35,024 bases of DNA, taken from assembly GCA_038042445.1 (NCBI GenBank), contig JBBTED010000096.1, forward strand, positions 1 to 35,024, written 5' to 3'. The position numbers were made by a program, and so were the translations under genes. Position 1 is the first letter of the stretch. Every line of letters starts with the position of its first letter. Below are positions 4,516 to 35,024 of this stretch, piece after piece. The stretch comes from Candidatus Firestoneibacteriota bacterium (lineage in GTDB: Bacteria; Oederibacteriota; D2-FULL-39-29; JBBTED01). The notes beneath the pieces were generated by a model. The model was not told where the DNA came from, did not search any database, and saw only the letters and a list, made by a program, of their open reading frames with translations.

Positions 4516-4678
4516 GAGACTGTGTTATAATTAAAAAAATGGTGTGATTTGTCATTCCCGCATGTAGTTAGCGGGAATCCAGTGTTTTTAAAACATTGAT
4601 AAAACAAGACTCTGGATTCCTGCTTTCGCAGGAATGACAAACTACTAAAAATTACAATTAGCATTATGACACAGTCTG
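4516..4678. mobile_element. MITE, 163 bp, with 15-bp terminal inverted repeats and TAA target duplication
   Basis: AGACTGTGTTATAAT (4517-4531) / ATTATGACACAGTCT (4663-4677), one mismatch; flanked by TAA at 4513-4515 and 4679-4681. Confidence 0.72.
4551..4638. repeat. Paired palindromes, family D (dRS3-like GTCATTCCCG..CGGGAATCCAG), inside the MITE
   Basis: GTCATTCCCGCATGTAGTTAGCGGGAATCCAG ... CTGGATTCCTGCTTTCGCAGGAATGAC. Confidence 0.85.
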
Positions 4679-15724: not shown

Positions 15725-18599
15725 AATAATAACCTATTCATTTGAAGAGAATTTCATAGAGAATGTAGTATCTTTTGTTGAAGAAAACTATATAAAACAA
15801 AATAAAGACATAAGCAAATTAGCATTTGTATTTGGAGGGAAAAGACCATCGCTTTTTCTGAAAAAAGAGTTAGCAAAACGAATAAAGGGAAGTTTTTTCT
15901 CGCCTAAGTTTTTTTCAATTGATGAATTTATAGAGTATATTCTTTCCAAGAAAAATTCTTTCACAAAAATTTCAGATTTAGAATCTTGTTTTATTATCTA
16001 TAATTTGGCTAAAGATATTGCACCTGATATTTTAAATGGCAAAGAAAATTTTCCTCAATTTCTTCCCTGGGCATACGAAGTTCTGTCTTTTATCGAATTA
16101 TTAGATTTAGAAGATGTTAAATCTGATATTTTGAAGCAAGTTCAACATAGTGCAAAAATTGGTTATGATGTTCCTGAAAATATAAACACTTTATTGCAGA
16201 ATGTAAGTTTAATAAGAGATAAATACCATAATATACTAAAAAATAATAAGAATTATTCCAGAGGTTTGATTTACAATTTATCTGCCCAATATGTTAATGA
16301 TATTGACTTTAATGAATTTGATGAAATTTTATTTTGTAACTTCTTTTATCTTCATAAAACAGAAGAAAAAATACTAAAAAATATTTACAATAAGAATAAA
16401 GCAATTCTTCTGTTCCAGGGCGATGAAGATGAGTGGCCTATTTTAAAGAATATTTCAAAGAACTTTTTGTGTAAAATGACGCAAAGCGTCATTCCCGAAT
16501 GTTTCTATCGGGAATCCAAAAAGAGATTTCTAAATGCAAAATATACATTAAAAATTTATGCTGGTTTTGGTGTTCATTCGCAAGTTGCATTGACAGGAGA
16601 AATTCTAAAGAAAATAAAAAATATGGATAAAACTGTTATTATGTTGCCTAAAGCGGACAATCTAATACCTTTACTTTCTGAAATTTCATCACATATAGAT
16701 GAGTTTAATGTGTCATTAGGATACCCCTTGTCCAGAAGTTCTTTGTATTCACTTTTTAAATATTTATTTCAGGCGCAAAACACAAAAAAGAAAGATAAAT
16801 ATTATACAAAAGATTATTTAAAAGTATTAAATCACCCATTTAGTAAAAGCTTGAAACTTGTTTGTGATTCTTCAGTTACAAGAGTTCTTGTCCATAAGAT
16901 AGAGGAATTTATTCTTGGGATTGAAGAATCGCTATTTAGTGGAAGTGTATTTATTGACCCAAAGGAAATTGAAAATTTTGAAAAATTATATGATATTACA
17001 GCCAATACTTTAATTAAAATGAATATTGAAATAAGTGCTGAAGAATTAAAAAATACACTTAAAGAGTTACACAATATTTTATTTTATTCATGGGAAGATA
17101 TAAAAACCTTTTATAATTTTTCATTAAACCTTGAAAGATTTTTGAATGTTTTAATTGAAACATGTTCTTTTTTATCAATTGGTAGCTGGAACGATTTTCA
17201 ATTAAAAATCATTGAGCAGACATTTGTTATAAATGAAGAATTAAAAAATCTATCATTTAGTAAAGAATTATTTTTAAAAGATGAGATTTTTAAGATTTTT
17301 GAAGAAAGATTGGCAAGTGATCTAATTTCTTTTACTGGTTCTCCTGTTAAAGGGTTGCAGATTTTAGGATTATTTGAAACACGCTCTTTGAATTTTGAAA
17401 ATGTAATTGTTATGGATATGAATGAGGGGGTTTTGCCAAAATTAAAAAATTATGAACCTCTTATTCCAAGAGAAATAATGTTAATGTTGAATTTGGATAG
17501 ATATGAAAAAGAAGAAGAAATTCAGAGATACCAGTTTATGCGGCTTATTTCCTCTGCTAAAAATGTGCATTTAATATACGATGAAGGTAAAGATAAAGAA
17601 AAAAGTAGGTTTATAGAAGAACTTATCTGGAATAATCAAAAAGCATCTAATTCTTTAGATGTTTTGCCTGTTTCACGTGCAAATTTTAATGTTGAAATTC
17701 TACCTGAAAAAACTGATATAAAAAAATCTAAAGACGTTTTGAATTTATTAAAGGATTTTGAATATTCACCTACAAGTTTAAATACTTATGTCAATTGCCC
17801 GTTAAGATTTTATTATGCTTATGTTCTACGTCTAAAAGAAAAAGAAGATTTGTTAGATGAACCGGAAGGAGCGGATATAGGTAATTTTGTTCATAATTTA
17901 TTTGAAAATACATTTAAAGGTTTTATAGGCAAAAAACCTTATATTGATGAGAAATTTAAAATCCATTTTTTTTCTGAATTTGACAACGATTTTAAAGAAA
18001 AATTTGAAAAAAGAATGAAATCCGATGCATTCTTGCTTAAAGAAATACTGTTTTTTAGATTAAACAAATTTTTGGCTTATGAAACAAGAAGAGATGTTAA
18101 AGAAATTATAGGAATAGAGCAACAGTTTCGCGAGAAAATTAAATTAAATGACAATTCCTATATGTTTAATTGTAGAATTGACCGTATAGATAAACTTGAA
18201 GACGGAAGCATTTTAATTATTGATTACAAAACAGGCAGCGAAATCAGTAAGCCTAAAACAATAGATAAATTAGAATCTATGAAGGAATTTACGAGAACTA
18301 GCATAAAAGACTCAATAAAATCTTTTCAGCTACCTATATATTTTTATCTTGTAGAGAAATTACATAGTGATGCAGTAGTAAATGCAGCATTTTACAGTTT
18401 GAGAACTATAAGCCTAAATTATTTATATGATAAAGATAAAACAGATTATCCAGAATATAGAAGTAAATTTACCAATTTACTTATTAAATCTTTAGACTGT
18501 GTAATTAGTGAAATTTCAAATCCAGAATCCCCTTTCAAAGCAGATGATAGCAACACCCGCTATTGCGAGCATTGCCCCTACTTTTATCTATGCAGATAA
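15717..18599 (+). CDS. AddB-like PD-(D/E)XK nuclease with Fe-S staple cysteines
   Basis: Inactive-helicase-like body (GLQILGLFETRSL.F), SPTSLNTYVNCP.RFY, RIDRID..IIDYKTG, CEHCPYFYLC; overlaps the upstream gene by 8 nt. Confidence 0.88.
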   Translation: MDRIITYSFEENFIENVVSFVEENYIKQNKDISKLAFVFGGKRPSLFLKKELAKRIKGSFFSPKFFSIDEFIEYILSKKNSFTKISDLESCFIIYNLAKDIAPDILNGKENFPQFLPWAYEVLSFIELLDLEDVKSDILKQVQHSAKIGYDVPENINTLLQNVSLIRDKYHNILKNNKNYSRGLIYNLSAQYVNDIDFNEFDEILFCNFFYLHKTEEKILKNIYNKNKAILLFQGDEDEWPILKNISKNFLCKMTQSVIPECFYRESKKRFLNAKYTLKIYAGFGVHSQVALTGEILKKIKNMDKTVIMLPKADNLIPLLSEISSHIDEFNVSLGYPLSRSSLYSLFKYLFQAQNTKKKDKYYTKDYLKVLNHPFSKSLKLVCDSSVTRVLVHKIEEFILGIEESLFSGSVFIDPKEIENFEKLYDITANTLIKMNIEISAEELKNTLKELHNILFYSWEDIKTFYNFSLNLERFLNVLIETCSFLSIGSWNDFQLKIIEQTFVINEELKNLSFSKELFLKDEIFKIFEERLASDLISFTGSPVKGLQILGLFETRSLNFENVIVMDMNEGVLPKLKNYEPLIPREIMLMLNLDRYEKEEEIQRYQFMRLISSAKNVHLIYDEGKDKEKSRFIEELIWNNQKASNSLDVLPVSRANFNVEILPEKTDIKKSKDVLNLLKDFEYSPTSLNTYVNCPLRFYYAYVLRLKEKEDLLDEPEGADIGNFVHNLFENTFKGFIGKKPYIDEKFKIHFFSEFDNDFKEKFEKRMKSDAFLLKEILFFRLNKFLAYETRRDVKEIIGIEQQFREKIKLNDNSYMFNCRIDRIDKLEDGSILIIDYKTGSEISKPKTIDKLESMKEFTRTSIKDSIKSFQLPIYFYLVEKLHSDAVVNAAFYSLRTISLNYLYDKDKTDYPEYRSKFTNLLIKSLDCVISEISNPESPFKADDSNTRYCEHCPYFYLCR
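16476..16518. repeat. Family D palindrome plus ATGACGC-AAA-GCGTCAT hairpin, in frame inside AddB
   Basis: GTCATTCCCGAATGTTTCTATCGGGAATCCA encodes VIPECFYRES; related intergenic copy (reverse orientation) at 23632-23663. Confidence 0.85.
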
Positions 18600-18604
18600 A
18601 AAAT

Positions 18605-18644
18605 TTGACAAACCAGATATTTTCTAGTATACTATATATAGTAT
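18605..18644 (+). promoter_or_regulatory. Consensus sigma70 promoter with overlapping perfect 16-bp palindrome
   Basis: TTGACA(18605-10)-N17-TATACT(18628-33); ATACTATATATAGTAT at 18629-18644. Confidence 0.8.
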
Positions 18645-18705
18645 GATAAATATTCCAAAAGTCAAACACGTCTCAATACTCAATACTCAATACTCAATAC
18701 AATAA
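18643..18705 (+). CDS. Putative leaderless 20-aa leader peptide MINIPKVKHVSILNTQYSIQ
   Basis: ATG 9 nt after the -10 box; conserved in copy 2, where the only change is synonymous (CCA/CCT). Confidence 0.4.
   Translation: MINIPKVKHVSILNTQYSIQ
18672..18700 (+). repeat. Heptamer simple sequence repeat (CTCAATA)4
   Basis: Four perfect units inside the uORF. Confidence 0.95.
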
Positions 18706-18743
18706 GAAGTCTTTCTTCAAAAACTTTTTTCAAAAAACAAGGA

Positions 18744-19073
18744 GTCATTCTGAGTTCGCTTTGGCGAACGAAGAATCTCGTATTTTATTATTTTCTTTTT
18801 TATCCCCCTTGATAAAGGGGGACTAATGGGGATTTGTAGTTATCTTGCAAGTTGGGTTAGAAAACCCAACCTATATGCGAGTGTAGTGTACCTAAGATTA
18901 GGAAACCCAACGATAGGCAGGACATTCTTGTCCTGCCGTATAAATAGCTACTATGGAAACCATTCCATAGTGTATGGAAATGATTCCATAGTTTTGGTGA
19001 AATTCTAGGTTTAAATGCATTGTCATCCTGAACTTGTTTCAGGATCTGATTTTGTAGTCGCTGATTTATCAGC
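18744..19073. repeat. Concatenated array of seven distinct REP-like palindrome families
   Basis: Units at 18744-18779, 18803-18835, 18851-18873, 18913-18937, 18951-18970 + 18972-18991, 19022-19047, 19054-19073. Confidence 0.85.
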
Positions 19074-19136
19074 ATAAAAACATAACAAAACCAATAACGT
19101 ATGCAAAAGCGCCATAAAATACAAATAATGTAGACT

Positions 19137-19152
19137 TGGCACGAATTTTGCA
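19137..19152 (+). promoter_or_regulatory. Sigma54 (-24/-12) promoter
   Basis: TGGCACGAATTTTGCA = TGGCACG-N4-TTGCA, exact GG-N10-GC spacing, 45 nt upstream of the ATG at 19198. Confidence 0.7.
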
Positions 19153-19197
19153 TATAATATAAAGAAGAGGGAATAACCCATCTTCTTTAAAGGAGAG

Positions 19198-21024
19198 ATG
19201 ACAATGGGAAACAGGATAATGACAGCGGGAAATTTTGGTAAAGCATATTATTTTGATGGAATAGATGATAATGTAAATTGTGGGAACAGTATGGCAAAAG
19301 ATCAATATGCAGAAGGAACAGTTAATGACGAGCTTAAATTTAAGTATGATTCTACAAATTATGGAGTTTCCCAATCATTTAAAGTAGGAGGTTCAGCAAT
19401 ATCATTAACAGCAGTGGAATTAAAGCTGCTAAAAGTAGGTAGTCCAACAAGTGATGGAATTAGCGTAGAGATAAGGGAAAATAATAGTGGAGTTCCAGGT
19501 AATTTAGTAACAAATGGCACATCAGAGGAAATATCTATAGGTCAAATAAATACTTCAAATGCAAGGAGTTATTTATTTAAATTTGTAACGAAGCCGTCAT
19601 TAAGTGCAAATACAACATATCATATAGTGTTTAAAGAAAGGGATGGAAGTGGATTTAATACGACGAATTATATAAGTCTTAAAGGATTTTCCAGTTCAGT
19701 GTATGGAGATGGAGTAGCGTCATATAGTAATGATATTGGTAATTGGACAAATACGAGTAAAGATCTATGGTTTAGGACATATACAGGGAATGGGTCATTG
19801 AATTTGACAGGAACTATGACAATAGAAGCAGTAGTATGTCTTTACGCTCATACTGCTGGAAGTTTTTGCATAATGGGTAAAAAAGATCCAGATAGCGCAT
19901 ATTCTGAATTAGGTGGAGGGTTTAAGATAAATATGGATGCAGGAGGAATAACTTTTGTTTTTGATAGAGGTGATGCAGAAGAAGGGTGTGCATTTGATTT
20001 GCAGGTTCCATTTTTAACATGGATGCATATAGGAATAACATACAATGAAGGTGTTGTGAAGTGTTATATAAACGGTGCACTTATAAGGACAGTAAATAGC
20101 AGTTATCAGTTAATGGCGAGTTCAAAGGAATTACTGATAGGAACAGATGGTGATGGAGGAGGGAATAGATTTTCTGGAGTAATAGATGAAGTAAGAATAT
20201 CAAAAGTAGTAAGAACATTTAGTCCATTAGGATTGAATACTCCATATAGTAATGATAGTGATACAGTAGTATTATTGCATTTTGAAGGTAATGCAAACGA
20301 TTCATCTAGTAATGGAAACAATGGAACAGTATCTGGAGCAATATTAACAGATGAGTATGGTTTGATAGCTGGAATAAATGCATCAACAGAGGCAACAAAG
20401 ATAGATGCGGCACAATTGGAAGCAACAACAGATGCAAAAAAGATAGCTACTGGAAATCTTAAAGATGGTGTATTATCTGCGGATGCAACAGGGTGGGCTA
20501 AGATGGCAGATGGATATGTTACACATGCAAAAATAGAGGATAAACATTTTGCCTATGGGCAAATATACAGAAATACAAGTCAAGGACCAATTGATAATCC
20601 GAATAGTTGGAATCAAATAGTATTTACTACAAGTACAATTCTAAAAAATATTATTTTTCAAGTTGGTATAGATGCAGGGAAAATTAAAGTTAATTATGCA
20701 GGTATATACAGAATACAATATTGGATATCAGCTATCCATCCTTCAAATTCGGGTGTAATAAAAGCAAGAATAGTAAAAAATTCAGCTGATGTAAATTCAG
20801 GAACAGAAGTTGAAGGTAGTTTTAGTATATTTGGATATACTGGAGCAGGGAACTACGGATTTTTAACCAGAGATGTTATTGAATCATTAGGTCAAAATGA
20901 GTACATAAGATTAGCAGTAGGTGGAAATTATAGTAATATGTATGTTAATGTTCCTGGAGAAAGTCCGTCTCCTGCGAATACAGTTGTGGCAATATTAACT
21001 ATAGAAAAAATAGGAGAAGCGTAA
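19198..21024 (+). CDS. LamG-like jellyroll protein with inserted beta-domain, short fibre-like segment and C1q/BclA-like C-terminal domain
   Basis: GNFGKAYYFDG.DD, W.HIGITY..G..K.YING, FSGVIDEVRIS, LLHFEGNANDSS.NGNNG; I.V..AGIY.I.Y motif; AGGAG RBS; no signal peptide visible. Confidence 0.72.
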   Translation: MTMGNRIMTAGNFGKAYYFDGIDDNVNCGNSMAKDQYAEGTVNDELKFKYDSTNYGVSQSFKVGGSAISLTAVELKLLKVGSPTSDGISVEIRENNSGVPGNLVTNGTSEEISIGQINTSNARSYLFKFVTKPSLSANTTYHIVFKERDGSGFNTTNYISLKGFSSSVYGDGVASYSNDIGNWTNTSKDLWFRTYTGNGSLNLTGTMTIEAVVCLYAHTAGSFCIMGKKDPDSAYSELGGGFKINMDAGGITFVFDRGDAEEGCAFDLQVPFLTWMHIGITYNEGVVKCYINGALIRTVNSSYQLMASSKELLIGTDGDGGGNRFSGVIDEVRISKVVRTFSPLGLNTPYSNDSDTVVLLHFEGNANDSSSNGNNGTVSGAILTDEYGLIAGINASTEATKIDAAQLEATTDAKKIATGNLKDGVLSADATGWAKMADGYVTHAKIEDKHFAYGQIYRNTSQGPIDNPNSWNQIVFTTSTILKNIIFQVGIDAGKIKVNYAGIYRIQYWISAIHPSNSGVIKARIVKNSADVNSGTEVEGSFSIFGYTGAGNYGFLTRDVIESLGQNEYIRLAVGGNYSNMYVNVPGESPSPANTVVAILTIEKIGEA

Positions 21025-21219: not shown

Positions 21220-23550
21220 ATGCAATTTTTAAAAAAGTATTTAAAGAACTTAATGGTTATTGTTTTTTTATTAGTTATAACTTCAATTGCAAGTGCAGGA
21301 TGGAAAACTATATCATTAGATTCCTTGGAGCCATATAGATATACTTCCATTGCATTGGATAATAACAATAAAATTCATATTAGTTATGCTAGTTATGGGG
21401 GTAGCAATGGAAAATTAAAATATGTGACTAATGCTTCAGGTGATTGGGTATATGTTACCATAGATAATGTAAATACGGATGTAATGGGAACTTCAATAGC
21501 AGTAGACCATAACAATAAAGTACATATTGCTTATATTGAACATACTTCAACTGGTTACAGTAATCTAAAATATGCTACAAATGCCAGTGGTTCATGGGTA
21601 ATTTTAGAAAGTGAAAGTGGTAAGTATTCTGATCTATCAATAGCTATAGATGGTAATAATAAAGTTCATATTAGTTATTATGATACTATGAATACGGATT
21701 TAAAATATGCAACAAATGTTACTGGTTCATGGATTTTTATTACTTTAGATAGTGTTGGAATTGTCGGAGCTGGTTCATCTATTGCCATAGACAGTAACAA
21801 TAAGGTTTATATTAGTTATACAGGTGTAGGTGATACGAATGCATTAAAATATGCAACAAATATTACTGGTTCGTGGGTTATTTCTACTATAGCTAATGAT
21901 AATGTAGGTGAAACTTCTATTGCTATTGATAGTAATAATAAAGTTCATATTATCTATTATTATTATTATTTAAAATATGGAACAAATGTTAGTGGTTCAT
22001 GGGTATTTATTGTTGTAAATAGTGCTGATATTGGGAGTGTTGGAGATCATAAATCTATTACCATAGACAGTAACAATAAAATTCATATTAGTTATTATCA
22101 TTATGGCTCCCAGTATATAAAATACACAACAAATATTTCTGGAGAATGGTCATATTTGACATTGGATAAAAGTGGAGCAGATATTTCGAGTGCTATAGAT
22201 GGTAATAATAAAGTTTATATTTGTTCTGCTTCACCTACTGGTGCTTTTGTTGGTATAAAGTATGCAATAATTGATAATTCAAGATCTGCTCCTATACTAT
22301 CATGGACAGGGGAGACGGATTATGCATCAGATGGAGTGAATCCAGATGTGGTAAATAGGGGAAGCAGTGTTCAATTTAGGGTGAAATGGACAGATGTAGA
22401 TGGAGATGCGCCAGATAGCGGGTATCCAAAGGTGACTATTAAGAAAGGAACGAGTGAAATAGGGACATATACAATGCAATATGTGAGTGGAGATAATCGA
22501 ACAGGAGCAATATATAGTTATACACTTGCATTTTCATCTTATGGAGGGGAGTATACATATTATTTTTCTGGGATGGATGAATGGCATGATGTAGCAGTAA
22601 ATACAGCAGAGAAAACATTTACAGTAGTAGATACGAATGGAATAATAACAGGAAAAGTAACAAAGGCAGATGGAGTGAGTGTTGTATCAGGGGTAGGAAT
22701 ACAGCTTTTGCAAAACGGAGTAATAAAAGCAATTACTACAACAGATAGCGGTGGTAATTATTCAACAGAATATGCATCAGGGACTTATGATGTAATGGTA
22801 ACAGCAACAGGATATTCAGTTGCAATGCAAACAGGGAAGGTGATAACCGTATCACAAACAACTGTGGCAAATTTCACATTAAAAGAAGGAGGCACAGCAA
22901 TAATAATAATATCAGATGATAGTTTTGCTGATATAAGCATATCATCAGATATAGATAATGTATATTTTAGTTTTAGCAAGAGGACAGATATTGTAGATGG
23001 AATAGGGTATGAGTTAATAATGAAGGATAAAAACAGTGGAACGAAATTGGATAATTTTGCGAAGCCAATAACATTGACAATACATTGGACAATAGCGAAT
23101 GGAAAGGTGGCAAATACAGAAGTGAGTGAGTATGAAGCGCTTAATAAATTAAGTATATACTATTATGATGGGGTGAGATGGCAGAAAGTAGGCGGGTTAG
23201 TAGACCCAGTGAATCAGACAGTGAGTGTAATCACAAGCAAAGCAGGAGTGTATGCAATAAAGTCAAGTGCATCAGTAAGTTATGGAGGTAGGATATTGGT
23301 GTATCCGAATCCGTTTACACCGAACAATGATGGAGTAAATGATTCAGTAGTGTTTTACTTTGACGCAGGGACAGTGCAGCCAGTAATAAAGGTATACAAT
23401 GGAAGTGGTAGGGTGGTAAGGACGTTAGATGGAGTTGTAAGTTGGGATGGGAAAGACGATAGCGGTAGTGTGGTAGAAGCAGGATTGTATTTGTATCATT
23501 TTAGATTAGGGGATTTGAATAAGACAGGGACAGTGGTTGTGGCGAAGTGA
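21220..23550 (+). CDS. Secreted protein: 7-repeat beta-propeller, Ig/carboxypeptidase-regulatory-like domains, T9SS type-B/FlgD-like C-terminal domain
   Basis: Signal peptide ending ASA; seven S(I)AID.NNK(V/I)(H/Y)I repeats; G.ITGKVT..TDSGGNY; YPNPFTPNNDGVND...WDGKD..G..V.AGLYLY...GTVVVAK. Confidence 0.82.
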   Translation: MQFLKKYLKNLMVIVFLLVITSIASAGWKTISLDSLEPYRYTSIALDNNNKIHISYASYGGSNGKLKYVTNASGDWVYVTIDNVNTDVMGTSIAVDHNNKVHIAYIEHTSTGYSNLKYATNASGSWVILESESGKYSDLSIAIDGNNKVHISYYDTMNTDLKYATNVTGSWIFITLDSVGIVGAGSSIAIDSNNKVYISYTGVGDTNALKYATNITGSWVISTIANDNVGETSIAIDSNNKVHIIYYYYYLKYGTNVSGSWVFIVVNSADIGSVGDHKSITIDSNNKIHISYYHYGSQYIKYTTNISGEWSYLTLDKSGADISSAIDGNNKVYICSASPTGAFVGIKYAIIDNSRSAPILSWTGETDYASDGVNPDVVNRGSSVQFRVKWTDVDGDAPDSGYPKVTIKKGTSEIGTYTMQYVSGDNRTGAIYSYTLAFSSYGGEYTYYFSGMDEWHDVAVNTAEKTFTVVDTNGIITGKVTKADGVSVVSGVGIQLLQNGVIKAITTTDSGGNYSTEYASGTYDVMVTATGYSVAMQTGKVITVSQTTVANFTLKEGGTAIIIISDDSFADISISSDIDNVYFSFSKRTDIVDGIGYELIMKDKNSGTKLDNFAKPITLTIHWTIANGKVANTEVSEYEALNKLSIYYYDGVRWQKVGGLVDPVNQTVSVITSKAGVYAIKSSASVSYGGRILVYPNPFTPNNDGVNDSVVFYFDAGTVQPVIKVYNGSGRVVRTLDGVVSWDGKDDSGSVVEAGLYLYHFRLGDLNKTGTVVVAK

Positions 23551-33723: not shown

Positions 33724-34920
33724 ATGGAAAATTGGTTTTTTATTGCAAATAATACTATTGGTGATTCTGGTTTAAGTGGTGGAGATAGAATATATATTGA
33801 ATTAGCAAGAAATTGGAAAGATAAAGTCCAATTATCTATTATAGGAACTGAAGAAACAATAACTGTTTGCAAAAGAGAAGGCCTTACTGATGTAGATTTT
33901 TTAAAAACCTCAACAAAATTAGGGCTCAAAAATGTTTTTACAATGTTTGCCCTTTTTTCTAATTTTTTCAAAAAATTATTCAACGGTGTATTATTTATAA
34001 TAAAAAATACAAAGCTATTTAAAAATAGCAATTGTGTTTATTCTGTTTCAGATTTTTATCCTGATTCAATACCTGCATTTTTAATTAAACTCATAAACAA
34101 AAAAGTTATTTGGATTGCAGGTTTTTATCTTTTTGCTCCTGCGCCTTTCCAAAAAGATTCACCATATAAAGGAAAAGATTTTCTTAGGGGTTTTTTATAC
34201 TGGTTATCACAAATCCCAATTCATTGGATAGTAAATAGATATGCGGATATAGTATTTATTACCTCTGAACCAGACAAAAAAAGATTTATTAGAAAAAAAA
34301 GAGATGAATCAAAAATTATAGTTATCAGAGGAGGAGTAAATATTTCAGATTCTACAAAATATTTGAATAGCCAAAATGTTATTCCTGTGGAGAAACGAAA
34401 ATACGATGCCTGTTTTGTTGGCAGATTCCATCAGCAAAAAGGTGTTTTAGTTTTGATTGATATATGGAAAGAGGTTGTGAAGCTTAAACCAGATGCAAAA
34501 TTAGCAATGATAGGAAATGGACCATTAGAAGAAGAAGTTAAAAACAGAGCTAAAGAATATGGAATAGGTAATAATATAGATTTATTTGGTTTTTTAGATG
34601 GCGAGAAAAAATACGCCATTTTTCAGCAAAGTAAAATTGTAGTGCATCCTGCTACTTATGATAGTGGTGGAATGGCATCAGCAGAAGCTATGGCATGGGA
34701 ATTACCAGGCATAAGTTTTGATTTAGAAGCGCTAAAAACATATTATCCAAAAGGTATGATAAAAATACCACAAGGAAATAATAAGAACTTCGCAGAAGAA
34801 ATAATTAAATTATTATTCAATAAAGAATATTACGCAAATTTATCCAAGCAAGCAAGAGACCTAATAATTGAAAAATGGAGTTGGGATAAACGAGCAACCG
34901 AAATTTTTCGGCAAATTTGA
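33724..34920 (+). CDS. Glycosyltransferase family 4 (GT-B)
   Basis: SGGDRI, FVGRFHQQKG, IGNGP, P..YDSGGM...EAMA. Confidence 0.88.
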   Translation: MENWFFIANNTIGDSGLSGGDRIYIELARNWKDKVQLSIIGTEETITVCKREGLTDVDFLKTSTKLGLKNVFTMFALFSNFFKKLFNGVLFIIKNTKLFKNSNCVYSVSDFYPDSIPAFLIKLINKKVIWIAGFYLFAPAPFQKDSPYKGKDFLRGFLYWLSQIPIHWIVNRYADIVFITSEPDKKRFIRKKRDESKIIVIRGGVNISDSTKYLNSQNVIPVEKRKYDACFVGRFHQQKGVLVLIDIWKEVVKLKPDAKLAMIGNGPLEEEVKNRAKEYGIGNNIDLFGFLDGEKKYAIFQQSKIVVHPATYDSGGMASAEAMAWELPGISFDLEALKTYYPKGMIKIPQGNNKNFAEEIIKLLFNKEYYANLSKQARDLIIEKWSWDKRATEIFRQI

Positions 34921-35024
34921 CAAAATCTATATTTTGTAGTATACTATATATAGTATGATAAATATTCCTAAAGTCAAACACGTCTCAATACTCAATACTC
35001 AATACTCAATACAATAAGAAGTCT
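34913..35024 (+). repeat. 112-bp promoter/uORF/heptamer module, copy 2 (runs to window end)
   Basis: TTGACA 34917-22, TATACT 34940-45, palindrome 34941-56, uORF 34955-35017, (CTCAATA)4. Confidence 0.95.

Follow-up and report, generated by a model that had tools for sequence, protein, structure and literature searches.

A stack of repeat hairpins in a predicted sigma-54-dependent control region upstream of a Laminin_G_3 gene of Candidatus Firestoneibacteriota

Contig JBBTED010000096.1 of a Candidatus Firestoneibacteriota bacterium (assembly GCA_038042445.1; 2.81 Mb, 181 contigs, 32% G+C) was analyzed over its whole length of 35,024 nucleotides, referred to as the window, or as C96 where contigs of the assembly are told apart by number. 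The element under study is a stack of short hairpins, 330 bp long, that sits inside a 598-bp intergenic gap (18600-19197) between a 960-aa PD-(D/E)XK AddB-like gene on the left and the gene for a 608-aa Laminin_G_3 (LamG) protein on the right (Pfam Laminin_G_3, E = 4e-16). The initial annotation described the stack as seven repeat families, one of each, behind a strong promoter. Every one of the seven motifs (E1 to E7, Table 1) is present, far from chance expectation, and four of the families do recur elsewhere in the window (repeat families D5, D7, D10, and D11/D13). We consider the gap, with a probability of about 0.7, to be a sigma-54-dependent regulatory region that acts as an insertion sink for passenger repeats; a plain insertion sink had been the fallback of the initial annotation, and it is the reading favored by the data.

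The palindrome of motif E5, TATGGAA-N4-TTCCATA (18 nt), occurs in 15 copies at eight genomic loci, seven of which hold a pair exactly 21 bp apart; the tandem pair is found in 6 copies within 6 mismatches. At seven of the eight loci a -24/-12 element aimed at a gene lies 109-502 bp downstream when one mismatch per half is allowed and the GG and GC are kept. The distance is 109-180 bp at five loci, 260 bp at the sixth, and 502 bp, counted across a scaffold gap, at the seventh. E5 is not a family of repetitive extragenic palindromes (REPs); the pair is read as a tandem enhancer, or upstream activator sequence (UAS), to which an NtrC-type activator is predicted to bind. Matches to TGGCAY-N5-TTGCW number 21 in the 2.8-Mb genome and include the predicted promoter ahead of the LamG gene, where the block TTGGCACGAnnnTTGCATATAATA is conserved at C95a, C160, and C36. 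The genome also encodes rpoN (Sigma54_DBD at C63:52124-52600, E = 1.5e-55) and six activators in which the Sigma54_activat domain is complete. A known type of sigma-54 promoter, represented by glnAp2/NtrC and DctD, has tandem upstream sites to which activators of the NtrC family bind. The region resembles this type in its -24 GG/-12 GC promoter, in the two dyad sites in helical phase upstream, in the presence of rpoN and REC-AAA+-HTH_8 activators in the genome, and in the recurrence of the site before several genes, as in a regulon. It differs in that the candidate activator described below has no kinase gene next to it and in that the spacer is filled with mobile palindromes. Two NtrC-family activator dimers would occupy the tandem palindrome on the same face of the helix, since sites 21 bp apart are separated by two helical turns, and would loop across about 150 bp to the sigma-54 promoter, switching on the LamG surface-protein gene, for which sigma-54 dependence is predicted from the sequence.

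The predicted regulon comprises genes for Laminin_G_3 proteins at C96 (608 aa), C95a (395 aa), C95b (593 aa), and C160 (863 aa), together with those for a giant Ig-like protein (C36, more than 3300 aa) and for a CsgG-like outer-membrane protein (C155). No description of the TATGGAA-N4-TTCCATA site and its regulon was found in the literature searched, though no dedicated search for the site was made. The C160 protein (C160:3910-6501) joins an N-terminal Laminin_G_3 domain to a phage tail collar domain, and the C95a protein (C95:1616-2803) joins such an N-terminal domain to a BclA_C-like end; both are without an evident signal peptide and are reminiscent of tail-fibre-like proteins. At C176:6130-6500, a tandem array of ~78-nt units lies between the activator-site pair and the sigma-54 promoter and is interrupted by a scaffold gap; each unit consists of one GTCATTCCCGC-type hairpin and one ATAGG-type REP.

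Beyond this genome, the exact tandem motif was found in four other species in a scan of a genome collection. In a Deltaproteobacteria metagenome-assembled genome (MAG) it lies between a REC-Sigma54_activat-HTH_8 gene, whose stop codon it follows by 3 nt, and a TGGCAC-N5-TTGCA element (TGGCACCTTCCTTGCA) located 53 bp beyond the end of the motif. A Verrucomicrobia MAG with the motif has a consensus promoter ~110 bp off on the opposite strand, and a Nitrospirota MAG has a second tandem pair, 22 bp apart, just behind another activator gene. The helix (V/I)DYKT(L/I)L is common to the Deltaproteobacteria and Nitrospirota activators and to the protein of C128:6639-8018, which is built of REC, AAA+, and HTH_8 domains and has the best HTH match (E = 1e-10) of the five activators of this genome that were compared. 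The C128 protein is tentatively put forward as the best candidate activator, a weak assignment.

The other motifs belong to a genome that is rich in hairpins. Five of the seven are hairpins with perfect stems of 7 bp or more, including 3 or more G/C, inside 243 bp, where the chance expectation is ~0.02 per 250 bp; the genome holds 1309 such strict hairpins versus 230 in a block-shuffled genome. They group into dozens of stem families, with 835 hairpins in families of at least three copies, and 601 of 792 family hairpins are intergenic, in the 11% of the genome that is intergenic DNA. Intergenic regions are here the space between open reading frames (ORFs) of at least 120 aa, a crude gene call that misses small genes. 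By the number of distinct strict hairpin families (five), the gap ranks first of 1846 such regions, and when hairpins are clustered by proximity only C176, which also has activator sites, exceeds the stack, with seven families. The stack is thereby an outlier in the number of families, not in kind. Among 21 intergenic regions with at least three family hairpins, 19 contain at least three families, and a one-of-each composition is expected where dozens of families are available. At least 13 mixed stacks of three or four families lie in intergenic regions that have neither the upstream module (Table 1) nor a TATGGAA site, a finding that the initial annotation had itself counted against its proposal of a special array. 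Strict family hairpins reach 4.4 per kb in the seven intergenic regions with an activator site, 4.4 in gaps below 100 bp, 3.8 in gaps of 100-200 bp, and 0.85 in the other gaps of 300-1400 bp, a class in which the crude ORF calls surely leave small genes hidden, as they did the small GIY-YIG genes. To the extent that dilution by such genes accounts for the low density of long gaps, the stack can be read as a long, truly non-coding stretch filled at the ordinary rate.

Two of the motifs, E1 and E6, belong to the GTCAT class. The E1 family, GTCATT(CT/GC)GAG..GAAG(A/C)AATC, is represented by 68 copies in the genome, of which 16 fall within ORFs of 120 aa or more, and it flanks a 94-aa GIY-YIG gene (C63:19819-20040) on both sides. 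E6 has 80 copies within 3 mismatches (8 in ORFs), is terminator-like with a T-run behind it, and was flagged by a terminator scan; its class flanks another small GIY-YIG gene (C79:17162-17386), again on both sides. Four small GIY-YIG genes were found in the genome by a Pfam search, and the proteins of C63 (94 aa) and C79 (95 aa) both match the GIY-YIG family of Pfam and are similar to UPF0213 structures. A first screen, limited to ORFs of at least 90 aa, had given pheS as a gene flanked by GTCAT hairpins, which is attributed to chance. Perfect GTC-AT..AT-C units number 154 in the genome. The NTS repeats of Neisseria and the wider SRM repeats are described in PMC11893778 as single-strand substrates of SsnA, a GIY-YIG nuclease of 94 aa; this was the only relevant paper found in a literature search on the motif words of the stack. 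Like the system set out there, the units here have an oriented GTCAT foot followed by a hairpin, and repeats stand on either side of single-domain GIY-YIG genes of 94-95 aa; the units also cluster beside surface-protein genes, which that paper reports for Neisseria too. Unlike the SRM repeats as defined in that paper, E1 and E6 fall outside its search string and are A+T-richer variants with cognate genes of their own, and their cleavage is putative. The string itself has 46 sites in the genome versus 0-2 in shuffled sequence, all of the GTCATTCCCGC type. E2 represents a further class, with 130 strict hairpins, 118 of which are accompanied by a further C- or G-run no more than 25 nt away. This class abuts two of three DUF559 genes, one of them on both sides, a link that is one of adjacency only.

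The remaining units are REPs. E7 has 10 exact copies and 154 within 3 mismatches (31 in ORFs of at least 120 aa). The feature that defines a REP, a 5' GT[AG]G at the foot of the palindrome, is set out in PMC3479197 and PMC3686654; it is found in 347 strict family hairpins of the genome and, as GTAG at position 19054, in E7. Y1-transposase genes (C63:23635-24243, C11:20005-20529, and C74:19400-19933) are flanked by GTAG REPs, often as inverted doublets, and no gene for a REP-associated tyrosine transposase (RAYT) was seen beside the exact stem variant of E7. A 1370-aa open frame at C63:4660-8772 begins with a RAYT-like Y1 transposase domain and has GTAG REPs on both sides. E3 and E4, with 6 and 7 copies, are paired 3-20 nt apart in 6-7 copies elsewhere, mostly just behind gene ends such as those of two tatA-like genes and one rubredoxin-like gene, and they are one composite two-hairpin unit of the ATAGG class. 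In the stack the two halves are split by ~40 nt that include a partial E3 arm (18900-18911), and DNA contigs of other copies skip 36-40 nt at the split point. Both carry ATAGG, and neither has the GT[AG]G foot. A RAYT gene (C59:5329-5787; 111.8 bits versus NCBIfam REP_Tyr_transpos, cut-off 80) has on each side two ATAGG-GTCAGGC units, the abundant member of the ATAGG class to which E4 belongs. The genome resembles REP/RAYT systems in the GTAG foot of E7, in hundreds of extragenic copies in several classes, in RAYT genes flanked by their own class, and in the frequency of doublets (REPINs); it differs in that E3/E4 and the C59 RAYT class carry ATAGG, and the units of the stack are single and in one orientation, not inverted doublets as in REPINs. 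Bacterial interspersed mosaic elements (BIMEs) of enterobacteria, described in PMC3479197, in which REPs of a single system are paired with their inverted forms and the linkers are defined, are likewise a mosaic of palindromic units packed in one extragenic site. In contrast to BIMEs, the units here come from at least three unrelated nuclease systems and stand in direct orientation with unrelated spacers.

The count of seven families is therefore reduced, with E3 and E4 being one element and E5 an activator site, and the units that remain are dispersed repeats. The proposal that the stack assembles recognition hairpins of different selfish elements fits most units, for which RAYT, GIY-YIG, or DUF559 genes are flanked by the matching class, and fails for the TATGGAA pair. 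The hairpins other than E5 would be passengers of at least three genome-wide kinds of nuclease-associated repeat, namely GTAG/ATAGG REPs (RAYT), GTCAT hairpins (Ssn-like GIY-YIG), and C-run/G-run hairpins (DUF559), that settled in a long non-coding stretch. Their neutrality is presumed, and side effects on transcription are conceivable: the hairpins might end read-through that comes from addB or the module promoter, or insulate the sigma-54 promoter against it, E1 with its T-tract and E6 with its T-run being candidates for this.

Table 1. Features of the intergenic gap and the start of the LamG gene (window positions)
Feature	Position	Motif	Strand	Remarks
Module	18600-18735		+	~135 bp, earlier given as a 112-bp repeat; left edge of the duplicated regulatory region
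Module promoter	18605-18610 and 18628-18633	TTGACA, 17 nt, TATACT	+	sigma-70-like; scan 11/12
Module short ORF	ATG 18643 to TAA 18705		+	runs through the heptamers
Heptamers	18673-18700	TCAATAC, four times	+	followed by an A/T-rich tail
E1	18744-18779	GTCATTCTGAG..GAAGAATCTC	+	GTCAT-class (NTS/SRM-like) two-tier hairpin; T-rich tract 18780-18802 after it
E2	18803-18822	TCCCCCTTGATAAAGGGGGA	+	C-run/G-run hairpin, triplex-type; third G-run 18828-18831
Degenerate GTAG REP stump	18836-18850			after E2
E3	18851-18870	GTTGGGTTAGAAAACCCAAC	+	part of ATAGG-class REP doublet
E4	18913-18937	(ATA)GGCAGGACATTCTTGTCCTGCC	+	part of ATAGG-class REP doublet
E5	18952-18969 and 18973-18990	TATGGAA-N4-TTCCATA, twice	none	unit 18950-18992; predicted enhancer
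E6	19022-19047	GTCATCCTGAACTTGTTTCAGGATCT	+	GTCAT-class (NTS/SRM-like) hairpin between enhancer and promoter
E7	19054-19073	GTAGTCGCTGATTTATCAGC	+	classical REP: 5' GTAG, then short palindrome with TTTA loop
Sigma-54 promoter	19137-19152	TGGCAC-GAATT-TTGCA (TGGCACGAATTTTGCA)	+	predicted -24/-12 elements, 147 bp after the enhancer
Leader hairpin	19160-19171 with 19178-19189		+	inverted repeat I2; also present in C95b
Ribosome-binding site	19191-19195	AGGAG	+	
Start codon of 608-aa Laminin_G_3 gene	19198 or 19204		+	

The left part of the gap is a module present five times in the genome; its left edge, at AAATTTGACA, is sharply defined and the same in all copies. The other copies lie at window 34913-35024, C133:1-106, C160:6907-7062, and C95:5199-5329; the second copy in the window and that of C133 are cut by contig ends, and those of this gap (C96a), C160, and C95b are resolved. 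Runs of the NCAATAC heptamer occur in the genome in these five copies only, and in four of the five cases the gene in front ends no more than ~12 nt before the module starts. In a G+C-rich relative of the same phylum (G024; L012, L008, L002), the TCAATAC heptamer occurs in at least 16 places, and GTATTGA and TCAATAC runs face each other over short spacers just upstream of ribosome-binding sites. Other module copies, which the initial annotation had proposed to check, are also followed by mixed arrays, at C160 and C95b. Aligned, C96a, C160, and C95b share the order module, E2, GTAG REP, enhancer, E6, E7, spacer, promoter, and leader. E1 and E3/E4 are found in C96a only and are absent from C160 and C95b, and in the alignment they are whole-unit insertions specific to this copy in a shared scaffold. 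C160 has E2 at the same position and two other hairpins in place of E1 and E3/E4, and C95b is without E2. At C95b, which is the eighth palindrome locus (C95:5020-5110), a deletion has taken away the second palindrome together with E6, E7, and the sigma-54 promoter, and the one palindrome left directly adjoins the leader hairpin; the module promoter is the sole promoter remaining upstream of this LamG paralogue. C95a has no module and is 89% identical to C96a from enhancer to leader, spacers included (C160, 70%), and the C96 and C95a genes visibly differ at their coding N-termini. E6 stands at the same position in C96, C95a, and C160, and E7 is shared by C95a and degenerate in C160. A polar acquisition of units, as had been suggested, does not agree with these alignments, in which the paralogues differ by internal whole-unit insertions and deletions and not by additions at an end. 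For a comparison of strains, contigs of four DNA runs were used, none of which spans the region. In a 485-nt contig of run X4, from another study, the beginning of a C133-type module is joined to a stack almost the same as this one, except that 65 other nt stand in place of 82 nt around E3 (18820-18901); it is a second copy or a strain variant and has no bearing on polarity. The paralogue alignment and the X4 contig together indicate that the stack is part of a duplicated cassette that gains and loses units internally, and the populated non-coding stretch would have been copied along with the LamG gene family.

Several observations weigh against a sigma-54-dependent region filled with passengers. 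The shared helix alone is no proof that the candidate activator pairs with the site, since DYKTL-type helices occur in three relatives without the palindrome within 3-kb loci, and the full-length best match to the MAG protein is another activator of this genome (C18). A TATAAT box lies behind the -12 element in all seven promoters and TAGACT-16-TATAAT is also found here (scan score 10/12), so that a sigma-70 promoter at the sigma-54 site is possible. The SRM search string, as published, finds neither E1 nor E6. The four strict hairpins other than the UAS amount to 6.7 per kb in this 598-bp gap, and the UAS regions are five-fold enriched over the class of 300-1400 bp, an excess that is not fully explained. 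Finally, the module promoter is kept in all five copies and points into the stack, so that the hairpins may also be RNA.

The last point leads to a structured leader or small RNA, an unlikely reading, in which the sigma-70-type promoter of the module fires, the short ORF is translated from a nearly leaderless transcript, and the hairpins act as RNA, either as part of a ~150-nt RNA ending at E1 and a U-tract or of an attenuated ~560-nt LamG leader. TTGACA-17-TATACT scores 11/12 with both boxes retained in each copy, and three module variants (indels of +1, +7/+21, and -2 nt) keep ATG..TAA in frame, for which chance is ~0.11, giving short ORFs of 20, 18, and 25 codons. However, the peptide is conserved in its first six residues only and has no ribosome-binding site. 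A hairpin and a T-rich tract follow within ~10-60 nt of each resolved module copy, yet hairpin content and order vary between the paralogous leaders. The whole leader folds far better than shuffled sequence (z = -8.3), but a low folding energy is a trivial result of the palindromes, and the module as a structured RNA is rejected, with only 4 pairs predicted and no covariation. The separate, complete sigma-54 promoter and enhancer downstream also argue against this reading.

Still less likely is a co-opted architecture, in which hairpins between enhancer and promoter would bend the DNA or recruit an IHF-like protein and thereby aid looping. REPs are described in PMC3479197 as recruiting IHF, at least one repeat unit is present in all seven enhancer-to-promoter intervals, and E6 and E7 are placed alike in three paralogues. 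The shared position can be ascribed to descent, the paralogues being 70-89% identical, spacers included, and a density of 4.4 units per kb would by chance put a unit into an interval of 110-500 bp about half the time. The class of the unit also varies, with GTCAT and GTAG in C96, C95a, and C160, a C-run unit in C36, and the tandem 78-nt unit in C176b.

Lower again in probability stands the possibility that the hairpin stacks by LamG cassettes are not neutral. As recognition hairpins for several single-strand nucleases (Ssn-like, RAYT, DUF559), they would fix the cut sites of single strands that come in or are displaced, and would thereby steer recombination and gene conversion among the paralogues. 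By analogy, such a role is proposed for the NTS clusters that lie by surface-antigen genes of Neisseria. A transcript from the module promoter would open the DNA and let the hairpins extrude, in cassettes that share module, enhancer, and promoter.

Very improbable is the decoy or memory array of the initial annotation, an ordered, transcribed collection that would titrate hairpin nucleases or record encounters: units from at least three different nuclease-linked systems, all in one direction on the + strand, in the most family-rich of the intergenic regions would agree with it, but there is no polarity, no repeat-spacer regularity, and no adjacent processing gene, mixed stacks are common elsewhere, of the supposed families one is an activator site and two make up a single element, the stack is inherited within a duplicated regulatory region, and, unlike in CRISPR-like or other ordered memory arrays, no unit repeats save the activator site and copies differ internally. 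CRISPR-like arrays of the genome (C91:190-2201, 32 units; C21:69575-70326, 12 units) have different, G+C-rich palindromic repeats and look different from this stack.

Around the gap, a UvrD/AddA-like gene precedes the AddB-like gene, and the 608-aa Laminin_G_3 gene is followed by genes for a CHU_C (type-9 secretion signal) protein and then a PorP/SprF-like protein. Relatives of the AddB-like protein on metagenome contigs (48-49% identical) show neither synteny nor a stack behind the gene. An NTS-type unit, GTCATTCCCG..CGGGAATCCA, lies inside the AddB-like frame at window 16473-16518 with an ATGACGC..GCGTCAT hairpin ahead of it, and a sister copy is at 4536-4581. Six tandem units of ~140 nt within the 776-aa CHU_C gene (window 21346-22249) encode a motif, ..SIAIDSNNKVHISY.., that resembles propeller blades. 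The 98-aa ORF at 18857-19153 on the - strand is considered spurious, being without a Pfam match and built from the hairpins. In an Rfam search, the sole match at gathering score in the whole window is a tRNA, and 18500-19300 gave sub-threshold chance matches only.

The stack had been ranked as the best candidate for an undescribed system, a place now taken by known kinds, a sigma-54 region together with REP/RAYT, Ssn/NTS-like, and DUF559-linked repeats. For the reading of sequences it is a caution, in that palindromic activator sites amid REPs mimic another REP family. At least three repeat systems that combine a nuclease with hairpins coexist in one small genome, and two of their members, A+T-rich versions of the recently described Ssn/NTS system with a separate gene for each, would be substrate-enzyme pairs for work on single-strand nucleases. 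For the biology of this uncultured lineage, the predicted new activator site, with its seven or more predicted sigma-54 promoters and a LamG-type surface-protein family, offers a testable regulon.

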